This document shows, in pieces, positions 59,529-62,972 of a stretch of DNA of 64,000 bases. The notes beneath the pieces were generated by a model. That model was given only the letters and a program-made list of their open reading frames with translations. It had not been told where the DNA came from and ran no database searches. Numbering within the stretch: the stretch's first letter is position 1; each line of letters starts with the position of its first letter. The stretch comes from Methylacidimicrobium fagopyrum (GTDB lineage Bacteria > Verrucomicrobiota > Verrucomicrobiia > Limisphaerales > UBA11358), in assembly GCA_026225255.1 (NCBI GenBank), contig JAMFSJ010000061.1, positions 798-64,797 of the forward strand, in the 5' to 3' direction. The translations under genes were made by a program, and so were the position numbers.

Positions 59529-60496
59529 CGTTAGCTCATCCATTTTTTTTACTGTTGTTATTACTGCTACCGTTGCTGGCGTGGTTGAAGGGCAAGCGCG
59601 GCTTGCCGCCCGCGTTTATTTTTTCGTCGCTGGAACTTGTGCGCGGGATGCAAAATATTCGACGCTCGCGTTCCGGCGGATTTCTCCCGGCGTTGCGTTG
59701 GCTGACATTGACAATTTTTATTTTCGCGCTCACGCAGCCGCGTTGGACGAAAAGCACGACGGAGGTGAAGGCGAGCGGCATTGACATCGCGGTCGCGCTG
59801 GATTTGTCCGGCAGTATGAAGACGCAGGATTACGTGGTAGATGATCAGCGCATTGACCGTTTTGATATCGCGAAAGCCGTGTTGGAAAAATTTATCGACG
59901 GCCGGCCCAACGACCGGATCGGGCTGGTTGTTTTCGCGGGCCAAGCGTTTATCGCCACGCCGCTGACGCTGGATCACGATTTCTTGCAAGCCGATCTGGC
60001 GCGGTTGCAAATCGGCACGATCAATTCCGACGCGACGGCGATCGGCGATGGTTTAACGACGGCGGTGAACCGGTTGCGCGATCTTAAATCCAAAAGCAAA
60101 ATCGTCGTGTTGATGACGGATGGTGGCAATAATGCCGGCAAGGTGGATCCTTTGACGGCGGCGCAGGCAGCAGCGGCGTTGGGTGTGAAGGTTTATACGG
60201 TCGGCCTCGGCAACCGCGAGATCGTGCAGCAAATGGGTTTGCCGCCCGGTTATTTGCCCGACGAAGAAACGTTGCAGAAAATCGCCGAGACCACCGGCGG
60301 CAAATATTATCGCGCGAACAACGCCGAAGAATTGGTCGCGATTTATGCGGACATCAACAAGCTGGAAAAAACCGAGGCGGTGATCAACAAATACACTGAG
60401 TTCAAAGAATTGTTCGTGTGGTTCGTAGCCGCCGGATCGGGGCTGCTGTTGCTGGAAATTATTTTAGGACAAACCGCTTACCGGAGGTTGCCGTGA
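59525..60496 (+). CDS. batA: BatA VWA protein
   Basis: DLSGSM MIDAS, DRIGLVVF, TAIGDGL, LMTDG. Confidence 0.9.
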   Translation: MTLAHPFFLLLLLLLPLLAWLKGKRGLPPAFIFSSLELVRGMQNIRRSRSGGFLPALRWLTLTIFIFALTQPRWTKSTTEVKASGIDIAVALDLSGSMKTQDYVVDDQRIDRFDIAKAVLEKFIDGRPNDRIGLVVFAGQAFIATPLTLDHDFLQADLARLQIGTINSDATAIGDGLTTAVNRLRDLKSKSKIVVLMTDGGNNAGKVDPLTAAQAAAALGVKVYTVGLGNREIVQQMGLPPGYLPDEETLQKIAETTGGKYYRANNAEELVAIYADINKLEKTEAVINKYTEFKELFVWFVAAGSGLLLLEIILGQTAYRRLP

Positions 60497-60501
60497 TAAA
60501 A

Positions 60502-60683
60502 GAATTGCCGATTGATGATTGCCGATTGCCGATTGCCGACCGATTGGCAGAACGTCACGAACGTTGTGGCGCGTCTAATTTATCCGATTCGAAATTCACG
60601 GGCGAGACGTCCGCGCCGCTAAGCCTGCGGCGTCCGAACAAAAATTCCACAATCGCCAATCGCCAATCGCCAATCGCCAATTT
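60502..60683. repeat. 182-bp fold-back element, direct-repeat copy 1
   Basis: (GATTGCC)n and (AATCGCC)n heptamer arms around a conserved core. Confidence 0.9.
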
Positions 60684-60687
60684 CCCC

Positions 60688-61041
60688 CTATTTTCCAGAA
60701 GCTGTTTTGCGCGAGCTCGCCATAATGGCCGTCAGCTCGTTGGCTTCTTGCAACAACGCGACCAGCTTGCGTGCGGACATTGTGCCGGACTCGACGAGCA
60801 ACTCGAGCCACAGCGCGGTTTCGTCGGCTTCTTCTTCGACCGTGCCGATTTTAGCGATGAATTCGGCTTGGCTACGCGCTCGGCAACTAGCGCGATAATT
60901 CGCGGCGACCGAAGTGCCGCTACGGACAATCTGCTTGGCAATAACGCGGCCAGCGTCGTCGTTTTTTGGAATGGCGCGAGTCAGCTTGATGATCCGCAAA
61001 GCAAAAGTTTTCGTGCGCGCTTTCAACTCGGTGGGGTTCAT
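60688..61041 (-). CDS. Four helix bundle protein (23S rRNA IVP / Avd-like)
   Basis: QIVRSGTSVAANYRASCRARSQAEFIAKIGTVEEEADETALWLELL. Confidence 0.93.
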   Translation of the reverse strand: MNPTELKARTKTFALRIIKLTRAIPKNDDAGRVIAKQIVRSGTSVAANYRASCRARSQAEFIAKIGTVEEEADETALWLELLVESGTMSARKLVALLQEANELTAIMASSRKTASGK

Positions 61042-61089
61042 GACTCAAAATTACAAATCCAGCCCGCTGTTAGGCAAGACGGTTTGGGG

Positions 61090-61271
61090 GAATTGCCGAT
61101 TGGCGATTGGCGATTGATGATTGCCGACCAGTCGACAGAAAGTCGCGAACGTTGTGGTGCGTCTAATTTGCCCGATTCGAAACTCACGGATGAGACGTCC
61201 GTGCCGCTACGCCTGCGGCGTCCGAACAAAAATTCGGCAATCGCCAATCGCCAATCGGCAATCGGCAATTT
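61090..61271. repeat. 182-bp fold-back element, direct-repeat copy 2
   Basis: Colinear with 60502-60683, e.g. GCCTGCGGCGTCCGAACAAAAATTC is shared. Confidence 0.9.
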
Positions 61272-61277
61272 TTTACG

Positions 61278-62972
61278 ATGACATTCGAGAATCAAAATTT
61301 ACTATGGCTCTTGCTGGTGGTTCCGCCGCTGCTCGTGGTTTTTTTCTGGTGGGCATTGCGGACGCGGGAGCGATTGTTGACGAAATTTATCGAGGCGCGT
61401 TTATTGACGCAGTTAGTTGTGGGCGTTTCGATTGCGCGGCAGAAAATGCGTTTTGCGCTCGTGATTTTAGCCGTGATCGTATTGATCTTCACGCTCGCGC
61501 GGCCGCAGCACGGATTCGATTTACAGGAAGTTGGGCAGCGCGGCTTGGACATCATGGTCGCGGTGGATACTTCCAAATCCATGCTCACAACGGACATTGC
61601 GCCGAACCGTTTGGAACGCGCCAAACTCGCGGCGTTGGAATTGATGCAGCGCTCCAAGACGGATCGCATGGGCTTGATCGCGTTTGCTGGCAATGCGTTT
61701 CTAGAATGTCCGCTGACGATTGATAACACCGTCTTTGAACAAAGCGTGCAGGCGTTGAATGTGAATTCCATTCCGGAAGGTGGCACGGCAATCGCCGCCG
61801 CGATTAGCACGGCGGACAATGCGTTTAAGGAAAATGAACATCACAAAGTGCTTGTGCTGTTCACCGACGGCGAGGATAACGACAGCGAGACCGGCGCGCT
61901 CGAAGCCGCGCAAGCCGCCGCCAAAGACGGCTTGAAAATTTTCACAATCGGCATCGGCACGGCGGCGGGCGATTTGATCCACATCACGGACGCGGACGGC
62001 AACGCCAATTACGTCCGCGACGAAAATGGCAACGTGGTGAAATCGCATTTGAATGAAGCGTTGCTCAAACAAATCGCCGAGGCGACGGGCGGATTTTATC
62101 TGCCGTTGCGCGGCGCGGATGTCATTGATGCGTTGTATGAACGCGGCCTCGCGCCGTTGCCGCAATCGGACAACAAAGAAAAATTACTGCGCCGTTATCA
62201 CGAACAATTTCAATGGTGGCTCGCGGTGGCGATGCTGCTGCTGCTCGCAGAAATGTTTTTGCCGGAACGCAAACGCGAGCGCAAATCCGGCGGCGCAGTT
62301 TCAGCGACAGCGAAAGCTGTGGTGTTGATACTGGTGTTGGGCGCGTTGCCAAATTTCGCTTCCGCATCGCCGGCGAGCGCATGGCACGATTTCAACACGG
62401 GCAACTACACCAACGCGTTGACGGAATACGAACGCCTTGCGGAAATAAACACGAACGATTTGCGCCTGGTTTTCAACGCCGGGACCGCGGCGTATCGTGG
62501 GACTAATTTTGACTTGGCATTGCAGGATTTTCAGTTTGTGACGTTGTCACCGGATTTAAAATTGCAGCAATCGGCTTATTATAATCTTGGCAACACGCAA
62601 TATCGTATGGGCGAGCTGAAGTTCGAGCCGGACACGGACAGTCTCGACGCGATGGAAACCACGTGGAAAGAGGCCCTCACAAGTTTTCAACGCGCGGCGG
62701 AATTGAACACGAACGACGTAAATGCGGTTTACAATTTTGGCTTTGTGAAAAAGCAGATTGCATTGATCGCGTATCTGCGCGAAACGATGCGCAAGGCAAA
62801 ATCATCGGCGGACGAGGCGGTGCGACGGAATGAATTTCATGAAGCGTTAGCCATCATGGAAAGTCTGGCGCAAAATAAAATTGCCGCGAAAAAATTTCAA
62901 GATTACGTCAAAAAACTAAAGGACATCGATGCGATTCTCACTCCGCAACCACCTCCAACGACTCAGCCTTAG
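61278..62972 (+). CDS. batB: BatB-like VWA + TPR protein
   Basis: DTSKSM, PNRLERAK, FTDGED, YYNLGNTQY. Confidence 0.88.
   Translation: MTFENQNLLWLLLVVPPLLVVFFWWALRTRERLLTKFIEARLLTQLVVGVSIARQKMRFALVILAVIVLIFTLARPQHGFDLQEVGQRGLDIMVAVDTSKSMLTTDIAPNRLERAKLAALELMQRSKTDRMGLIAFAGNAFLECPLTIDNTVFEQSVQALNVNSIPEGGTAIAAAISTADNAFKENEHHKVLVLFTDGEDNDSETGALEAAQAAAKDGLKIFTIGIGTAAGDLIHITDADGNANYVRDENGNVVKSHLNEALLKQIAEATGGFYLPLRGADVIDALYERGLAPLPQSDNKEKLLRRYHEQFQWWLAVAMLLLLAEMFLPERKRERKSGGAVSATAKAVVLILVLGALPNFASASPASAWHDFNTGNYTNALTEYERLAEINTNDLRLVFNAGTAAYRGTNFDLALQDFQFVTLSPDLKLQQSAYYNLGNTQYRMGELKFEPDTDSLDAMETTWKEALTSFQRAAELNTNDVNAVYNFGFVKKQIALIAYLRETMRKAKSSADEAVRRNEFHEALAIMESLAQNKIAAKKFQDYVKKLKDIDAILTPQPPPTTQP

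Follow-up and report, generated by a model that had tools for sequence, protein, structure and literature searches.

A long open reading frame across an insert between batA and batB of Methylacidimicrobium fagopyrum as a likely translational relay

Results

We examined a 64,000-nucleotide (nt) stretch of Methylacidimicrobium fagopyrum DNA (GenBank assembly GCA_026225255.1, contig JAMFSJ010000061.1, positions 798 to 64,797 of the forward strand; hereafter the window, in whose coordinates positions are given) at the junction between the operon genes batA and batB, where an insert of 781 nt separates the two genes and a single open reading frame (ORF) bridges it. batA (59525..60496, plus strand) encodes a 323-amino-acid (aa) VWA / BatA-N protein that matches the Pfam families VWA, VWA_2 and BatA, and orthologues were found in 41 of 41 sampled relatives. 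The 3' end of batA reads CGG AGG TTG CCG TGA and thereby holds the ribosome-binding site (RBS) and the start codon of the bridging frame: a Shine–Dalgarno (SD)-like GGAGG lies within batA (60483..60487, plus strand), 5 nt upstream of a GTG (60493–60495) that overlaps the batA TGA (60494–60496) as GTGA (60493–60496; −4 nt). The frame opened by this GTG, which we call the relay ORF (60493..61281, plus strand), continues for 262 codons to a TGA (61279–61281) that overlaps the batB ATG (61278–61280) as ATGA (61278–61281; −4 nt). It is already free of stops from 60418 (287 codons), and its translation matched no family in Pfam or NCBIfam. batB itself (61278..62972, plus strand; 564 aa, with BatA-N, VWA and TPR) has its earliest possible in-frame start at ATG 61278 and no SD-like site upstream of it. 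A first-pass annotation made from the letters alone had described this frame as starting on the batA stop, staying open through two repeats and an antisense gene, and ending on the batB start, and the sequence bears this out in full.

The insert is composite. Two 182-nt direct repeats (copy 1, 60502..60683, with arrays at 60504–60538 and 60654–60681; copy 2, 61090..61271, with arrays at 61092–61126 and 61235–61269; both plus strand) each consist of an (ATTGCCG)n-type array, a core of about 110 nt and an inverted (CAATCGS)n array. The copies are 87% identical and, because their starts lie 588 nt (3 × 196) apart, share one relay reading frame; the duplicated peptide quoted in the first-pass annotation is indeed present in the relay translation. 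They differ at 23 positions, spread 8/8/7 across the relay codon positions, with 16 non-synonymous and 3 synonymous codon changes. Between them lies an antisense four-helix-bundle gene (60688..61041, minus strand; 117 aa) of the 23S_rRNA_IVP / TIGR02436 family, matching PF05635 with an E value of 1.4e-16 (61 bits, cut-off 33.8, profile positions 8–104 of 106) and TIGR02436 with 1.4e-23 (83.2 bits, cut-off 24). The gene contains no TTA, CTA or TCA codons, and the insert that carries it sits between batA and batB, not inside a 23S rRNA gene. The insert RNA is predicted to fold into a single long stem (−341.5 kcal/mol, z = −8.7 relative to shuffles) that pairs repeat 1 with repeat 2 and has both gene borders, the stop of batA and the start of batB, at its base. 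An Rfam scan of 60300–61500 (E up to 1) returned no family. The sequencing runs listed for this locus were DNA contig runs, one of them the likely source, and no RNA run was among them. For the repeat cores (60540–60650 and 61128–61233), no further copy of full length turned up, whether in this genome or across 163 genomes of the genus; there were only partial matches of 30–43 nt (C64:11105, C30:29111 and G157:C2:1910058).

An uninterrupted frame of this length is less remote by chance than it appears, because the antisense frame concerned is often open, the arrays are free of stops and the two repeats, being copies, cannot be counted independently. Relative to the four-helix-bundle gene, the relay is read in the codon-aligned antisense frame, in which stops arise solely from TTA, CTA and TCA codons; this frame was open in 1,366 of 5,404 (25%) 118-codon windows of the long ORFs of this genome, and neither the ATTGCCG nor the CGGCAAT heptamer contains a stop triplet. 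The window alone is therefore not decisive, and the question was settled in relatives, on which the case for more than chance rests.

Loci containing batA were collected from 40 relatives, from one genome per species of public assemblies, from metagenome contigs and from the 163 genus genomes (30 loci). Among 174 loci, 3 lacked a batA match at E ≤ 1e-10, and a further 12 were excluded because batA was weak or partial or because batB was not on the contig, which gave 159 junctions, or 115 distinct junction sequences including that of the window; the batB start of one locus (L131) was re-assigned, the first call having been wrong. At each junction we took the NTG that overlaps the batA stop as the start of the frame and scored a success when the first stop in that frame lay at −12 to +8 nt relative to the batB start. 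Fifty of the 115 junctions were empty and 65 were filled, with gaps of 4 to 781 nt. The first-pass annotation had proposed that empty sites would be directly coupled and filled sites bridged by an open frame, as opposed to random frames and stops. The empty sites had a −4 NTGA overlap in 49 of 50 cases and a −1 overlap in the remaining one; among filled junctions the relay frame succeeded in 59 of 65, whereas the two control frames (that of batA and the third frame) did so in 5 and 3 of 65, and the random pattern was looked for across all 65 and not seen. Relay stops formed an NTGA overlap with the batB start in 30 filled junctions and lay at −5 in 17 and at −6 in 5. For gaps of at least 70 nt, the relay frame succeeded in 26 of 27 junctions versus 1 and 0 of 27 for the control frames. 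Of the first 29 junctions, 16 were filled and 13 of these succeeded; the 85 sampled later bore the pattern out, with 45 successes among 48 filled junctions.

The DNA that fills these junctions is diverse, including (ATTTACG)n arrays of 16–38 nt, hairpins with arms of CAACGATT, CAGTAGT, GTTGAAGC or AATGACG units, a family of 144–160 nt, several singletons and the four-helix-bundle family. When gaps of at least 30 nt were grouped into 17 insert families by BLAST clustering and merging by hand, 15 families succeeded versus 3.3 expected from mononucleotide shuffles (Poisson-binomial P ~2e-11). Gap length was 1 mod 3 in 50 of 65 filled junctions, and the lengths found in the four-helix-bundle family (190, 427, 430, 451, 562 and 781 nt) are all 1 mod 3 despite the 7-nt period of the arrays. 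Junctions with a gap of 1 mod 3 had either an NTGA at batB alone (30) or an upstream relay stop alone (17), with both in 3 and neither in 0. Two apparent misses (L006 and L148, with gaps of 29 and 35 nt) reach the batB start through a series of mini-ORFs, two in the first and three in the second, each of which overlaps the stop before it as NTGA. We also considered a permissive chain model, in which any start from −8 to +12 nt of a stop would count, and dropped it for its null rates of 0.04–0.95; only the strict NTGA cascades were kept.

The position of the RBS follows the relay start rather than batB. Since a 13-nt pattern did not locate the 3' end of the 16S rRNA in this assembly, duplex energies were calculated with a generic anti-SD sequence. 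The median energy upstream of batB at empty sites was −9.5 kcal/mol; at filled sites it was −9.5 kcal/mol upstream of the relay start versus −1.1 kcal/mol upstream of batB, with random 18-mers at −2.6 kcal/mol. The arginine codon AGG, which forms the SD-like site, occupied this position in 40 of the 50 empty and 49 of the 65 filled sites (89 of 115 in all) and makes up 1.2% of the arginine codons of this genome. The codon that overlaps the batA stop was ATG or GTG in 62 of 65 filled junctions.

Codon usage of the antisense cargo points in the same direction. Six diverged junction orthologues of the four-helix-bundle gene differ by 36–53 synonymous codons per pair, and none of their 66 leucine and 57 serine codons is TTA, CTA or TCA, versus about 11.8 expected from genome usage. 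The same antisense frame was open in only 1 of 30 four-helix-bundle paralogues elsewhere in the genus (mean 3 stops), and the three sense-oriented paralogues in this genome carry 4, 7 and 5 such stops. The relay also outlasts its cargo: in one junction the cargo gene has a nonsense codon and a 111-nt duplication (L048), in another a 261-nt in-frame deletion has left a 30-codon in-frame cargo remnant (L174), and in both the relay is intact. Array units are altered exactly where the canonical unit would be a relay-frame stop (TGA to TGT in L030; TAG to TGG in L120 and L054). The relay peptides of the roughly 17 families are unrelated sequences of 3 to 262 codons and, judged by their sequences, the peptide is not conserved.

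A FastTree phylogeny of BatA plus BatB (109 rows, with 6 left out for short flanks or stops) had junction states (empty, ATTTACG array, four-helix-bundle insert or other) scattered across it, with at least 40 changes, 8 of which were accounted for by the ten four-helix-bundle rows. Filled and empty junctions were often sister rows. This turnover could reflect precise loss between the two NTGA copies, aided by the hairpin, or recombination among strains. The nucleotide divergence of the four-helix-bundle inserts (65–87%) is similar to that of the flanking genes, so these inserts are old and not recent copies.

Discussion

The anatomy of the locus and the signatures of selection across relatives lead us to regard the 262-codon frame, with good confidence, as a translational relay. 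Ancestrally, the batB ATG or GTG would have overlapped the batA stop as NTGA, with the RBS GGAGG in the final batA codons; because the RBS of batB was thus embedded in the end of batA, batB would have been made by ribosomes finishing batA. A composite selfish insert of 781 nt, carrying an antisense four-helix-bundle gene between two 182-nt hairpin-forming repeats, would then have parted the genes. The former start codon and RBS would have stayed behind at the end of batA, where they now head an open frame that crosses the entire insert and closes with a TGA that overlaps the ATG of the displaced batB, a start without an RBS of its own. Since start and RBS are retained and the relay ends on an RBS-less batB start, ribosomes leaving batA are probably passed on: they would reinitiate on the relay, melt the stable stem that encloses both junctions and keep the RNA under translation, then terminate on or beside the batB start and reinitiate there. 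Translation of the relay would also account for how the operon copes with a stem that otherwise buries both junctions. Selection would have acted on the openness, phase and end point of the frame, with the peptide as a by-product. According to PMC10666635, reinitiation in native gene pairs drops steeply within about 20–40 nt of spacing, and the relay mechanism fits this steep dependence on distance. For the batA–batB junction, the interpretation given in the first-pass annotation is supported.

Several points weigh against this interpretation or limit it. That the relay is translated, and that batB depends on it, we infer from sequence. In the window, part of the openness can be put down to the favourable antisense frame (25% open), the stop-free arrays and the duplication. 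The success window of −12 to +8 nt was chosen after the distribution had been seen, with the control frames scored by the same window; the insert families were defined by us, partly by hand; the shuffles were mononucleotide and the relatives are not independent; and the anti-SD is a generic consensus. Because junction state flips often, some fills may be so recent that erosion of the SD or start codon says nothing. Among the filled junctions, one from a distant family has its relay stop 27 nt upstream of batB and is unexplained (L027), another has its stop at −14 (L142), a 12-nt gap has CTG in place of the start codon (L065), and in one the old start frame is fused to batB (L015). The first-pass annotation had also suggested a general rule for insertions into this operon, and here only part of the claim stands: the rule holds at batA–batB (59 of 65), whereas at the moxR–DUF58 junction the relay frame was present in only 5 of 18 filled sites, and for other antisense four-helix-bundle inserts between same-strand ORFs the forward frame was open in 0 of 4. 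The rule thus depends on the junction. It seems to apply to downstream genes that have no RBS of their own, a conjecture examined at batB only.

The frame could instead be a by-product that arose without selection, its openness supplied by the antisense frame, the stop-less arrays and the copying of the repeat, and its NTGA ends left over from the target site. The codon-aligned phase of the relay relative to the antisense gene, the 25% of windows open in that frame, the stop-free heptamers, the 588-nt repeat spacing and the commonness of long spurious ORFs in the window would all be expected under this explanation. It nevertheless appears already disfavoured by the comparative data, and we consider it very unlikely: the control frames succeed in 5 and 3 of 65 junctions against 59 for the relay, 15 of 17 unrelated families succeed where 3.3 would be expected, the antisense frame is open in 1 of 30 paralogues but in every junction copy, and antisense-stop codons are absent where 11.8 are expected despite heavy synonymous turnover. 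Insert lengths that differ by multiples of three, array units mutated where they would stop the relay and retention of the rare AGG codon add to this. Somewhat better placed, yet still improbable as the explanation of the rule, is the possibility that a translated frame serves to shield the operon RNA from Rho-dependent polarity or nucleases rather than to deliver ribosomes to batB. Polarity of untranslated intercistronic RNA is established for enterobacteria, the insert is long and highly structured, and openness over 430–781 nt is what shielding would need. The fills of 16–38 nt are too short for polarity and follow the same rule, with a stop a few nt from batB, so protection from polarity cannot account for it; in addition, batB at filled junctions lacks an SD-like site of its own, and the either/or pattern of NTGA and −5 stops concerns the exact point of termination. 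Protection of RNA and delivery of ribosomes are not mutually exclusive, and the former may add a benefit for long fills.

Two further explanations seem to us scarcely credible. The 262-aa product might itself be a functional protein, as its length, good RBS and start codon would allow; against this stand the lack of any Pfam or NCBIfam match, the unrelatedness of the relay peptides across some 17 families, whose lengths range from 3 to 262 codons, and the even spread of differences between the repeat copies over codon positions (8/8/7), with non-synonymous changes outnumbering synonymous ones (16 versus 3). It is just as hard to credit that batB is expressed independently of the relay, through SD-independent initiation or from a promoter located in the insert or beyond it. 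The antisense gene, transcribed convergently, could interrupt the operon transcript, and the sole promoter-like match in 60300–61500 begins at 61278. This site lies inside batB, so a transcript starting from it would lack the batB start, and one such site compares with 0.7 in shuffled sequence; independent expression would also leave the signatures of frame, phase and stop position unexplained. A simple scan of 60300–61500 found no minus-strand promoter from which the antisense gene could be read; the likeness of a TAATTT immediately before its ATG to a −10 element was an impression that the scan did not support.

If the translational relay is accepted, a broader reading can be offered tentatively, and we hold it to be possible rather than probable: batA–batB may be a hotspot at which a guild of heptamer-array hairpin elements comes and goes, the NTGA...NTGA arrangement both framing the relay and permitting precise excision. 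Were this so, transparency to translation would be an evolved design feature of these elements, some of which carry four-helix-bundle genes as 23S rRNA intervening sequences do, and the synonymous codons of such a gene would be policed solely to keep the opposite strand free of stops.

Among known systems, the one nearest to the present insert is the mycobacterial interspersed repetitive unit (MIRU), found in intercistronic regions. According to a 2025 review (PMC12548453), which cites Supply et al. (1997), MIRU is a mobile repeat that inserts at start codons and contains an internal ORF coupled at −4 nt to the gene, an arrangement proposed to permit insertion with little effect on expression. 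Both elements lie between two co-oriented operon genes at the start codon of the downstream gene, and in both an ORF of the element is coupled to the two flanking genes by overlapping stop and start codons. The likeness is one of architecture and not of sequence, the host here, a verrucomicrobium of subdivision 3 (Limisphaerales), belonging to another phylum in which homology is not expected. Whereas MIRU is a short unit, the relay here has 262 codons, crosses a complete gene on the opposite strand and shapes the synonymous codon use of that gene; moreover, some 17 unrelated families obey the rule at this one junction, and chains of NTGA mini-ORFs occur.

Coupling by termination and reinitiation, as treated in PMC10666635 and PMC12548453, shares with the relay the NTGA at both ends, the SD inside the upstream gene and matching distances; stop-to-start distances of −8 to +10 nt are taken as predictive of coupling in the former (PMC10666635). 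The difference is that two couplings would act here in series through an intervening non-genic ORF, in place of one direct overlap. Intervening sequences of 23S rRNA that carry an ORF of the same protein family (PF05635, 23S_rRNA_IVP) offer a further parallel: there, too, a four-helix-bundle gene lies in the loop of a long inverted-repeat stem; the host here is instead a protein-coding operon, and the gene is antisense to the host transcript. Rickettsia palindromic elements are palindromic repeats inserted in frame, and resemble the present element in that hairpin repeats are tolerated inside translated sequence. Unlike them, this element lies outside both proteins and is read in a frame of its own, which runs from one gene border to the other. 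Four features are new: a 262-codon relay that spans an antisense gene, a constraint on the codons of that gene exerted from the opposite strand, how many unrelated fills obey the rule at one junction, and the NTGA cascades; a search of open-access full text found no description of them.

The batA–batB junction thus offers a natural experiment on translational coupling, in which unrelated DNA, from 4 to 781 nt long, has entered a single junction many times over and almost all survivors retain a relay. Selection would be able to act on an ORF purely for its openness and the position of its stop, and to reach across strands by constraining the synonymous codons of a functional antisense gene. A simple rule would follow for when selfish inserts are tolerated in operons, and the idea raised for MIRU would be extended from mycobacteria to Verrucomicrobia and to much larger cargo. 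In practice, gene callers will list relay ORFs as hypothetical proteins.

Other junctions and related elements

The window contains a second relay-type ORF (57291..57995, plus strand; 234 codons), which crosses an antisense ParE-like toxin and antitoxin pair (57375–57680 and 57677–57898, both minus strand). As the first-pass annotation had proposed for this toxin–antitoxin insert, its architecture is the same, the ORF stopping at a TGA that overlaps the ATG of the DUF58 gene. It begins with a duplicated ~85 nt of the DUF58 5' end and terminates at the ATGA of the true DUF58 start (57992); because this direct duplication flanks the insert, the second relay borrows the DUF58 gene's own start. 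Upstream, moxR occupies 54855–55844, and two extra genes lie between moxR and the DUF58 gene in the window (55841–57283), one encoding a VanXY / LdcB-like D,D-peptidase (167 aa, below the NCBIfam cut-offs) and the other a 277-aa ORF that matches no family. The distance between moxR and DUF58 ranges from −4 to 850 nt in the 19 relatives with both genes on the locus. At the junction between batA and the preceding hypothetical gene, all 108 distinct sequences had gaps of at most 13 nt, and there were accordingly no sizeable inserts to test; an apparent 1,010-nt gap in one locus (L032) begins with the batA N-terminus and is thus probably due to a wrong batA start call.

Among the 30 four-helix-bundle paralogues of the genus (L175–L204), 9 are bracketed by exact inverted repeats of at least 14 nt made of tandem heptamers, whose units vary widely (for example, GTTGAGA, GGTTGCA and TGGACTG), and an array–gene–inverted array architecture, reminiscent of 23S rRNA intervening sequences, seems typical of the family here. 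Twelve of the 30 lie in sense and 4 in antisense orientation between same-strand ORFs. Heptamer arrays are present in 87 of the 163 genus genomes. ATTGSCG-type arrays in this genome (for example, C64:63387–64322, C13:5590, C26:42395 and C66:110264) lie inside open frames of at least 150 codons in 15 of 16 cases, and random sites do so similarly often (354 of 400). On C64, two arrays that form a hairpin pair lie in the leader of a pseudopilin-like ORF, the ATG of which overlaps the stop preceding it. Seven of the compared loci (L036, L039, L044, L045, L047, L049 and L055) come from public MAG records titled 'uncultured Bifidobacteriaceae bacterium' though they carry the Verrucomicrobial operon, and look mislabelled.

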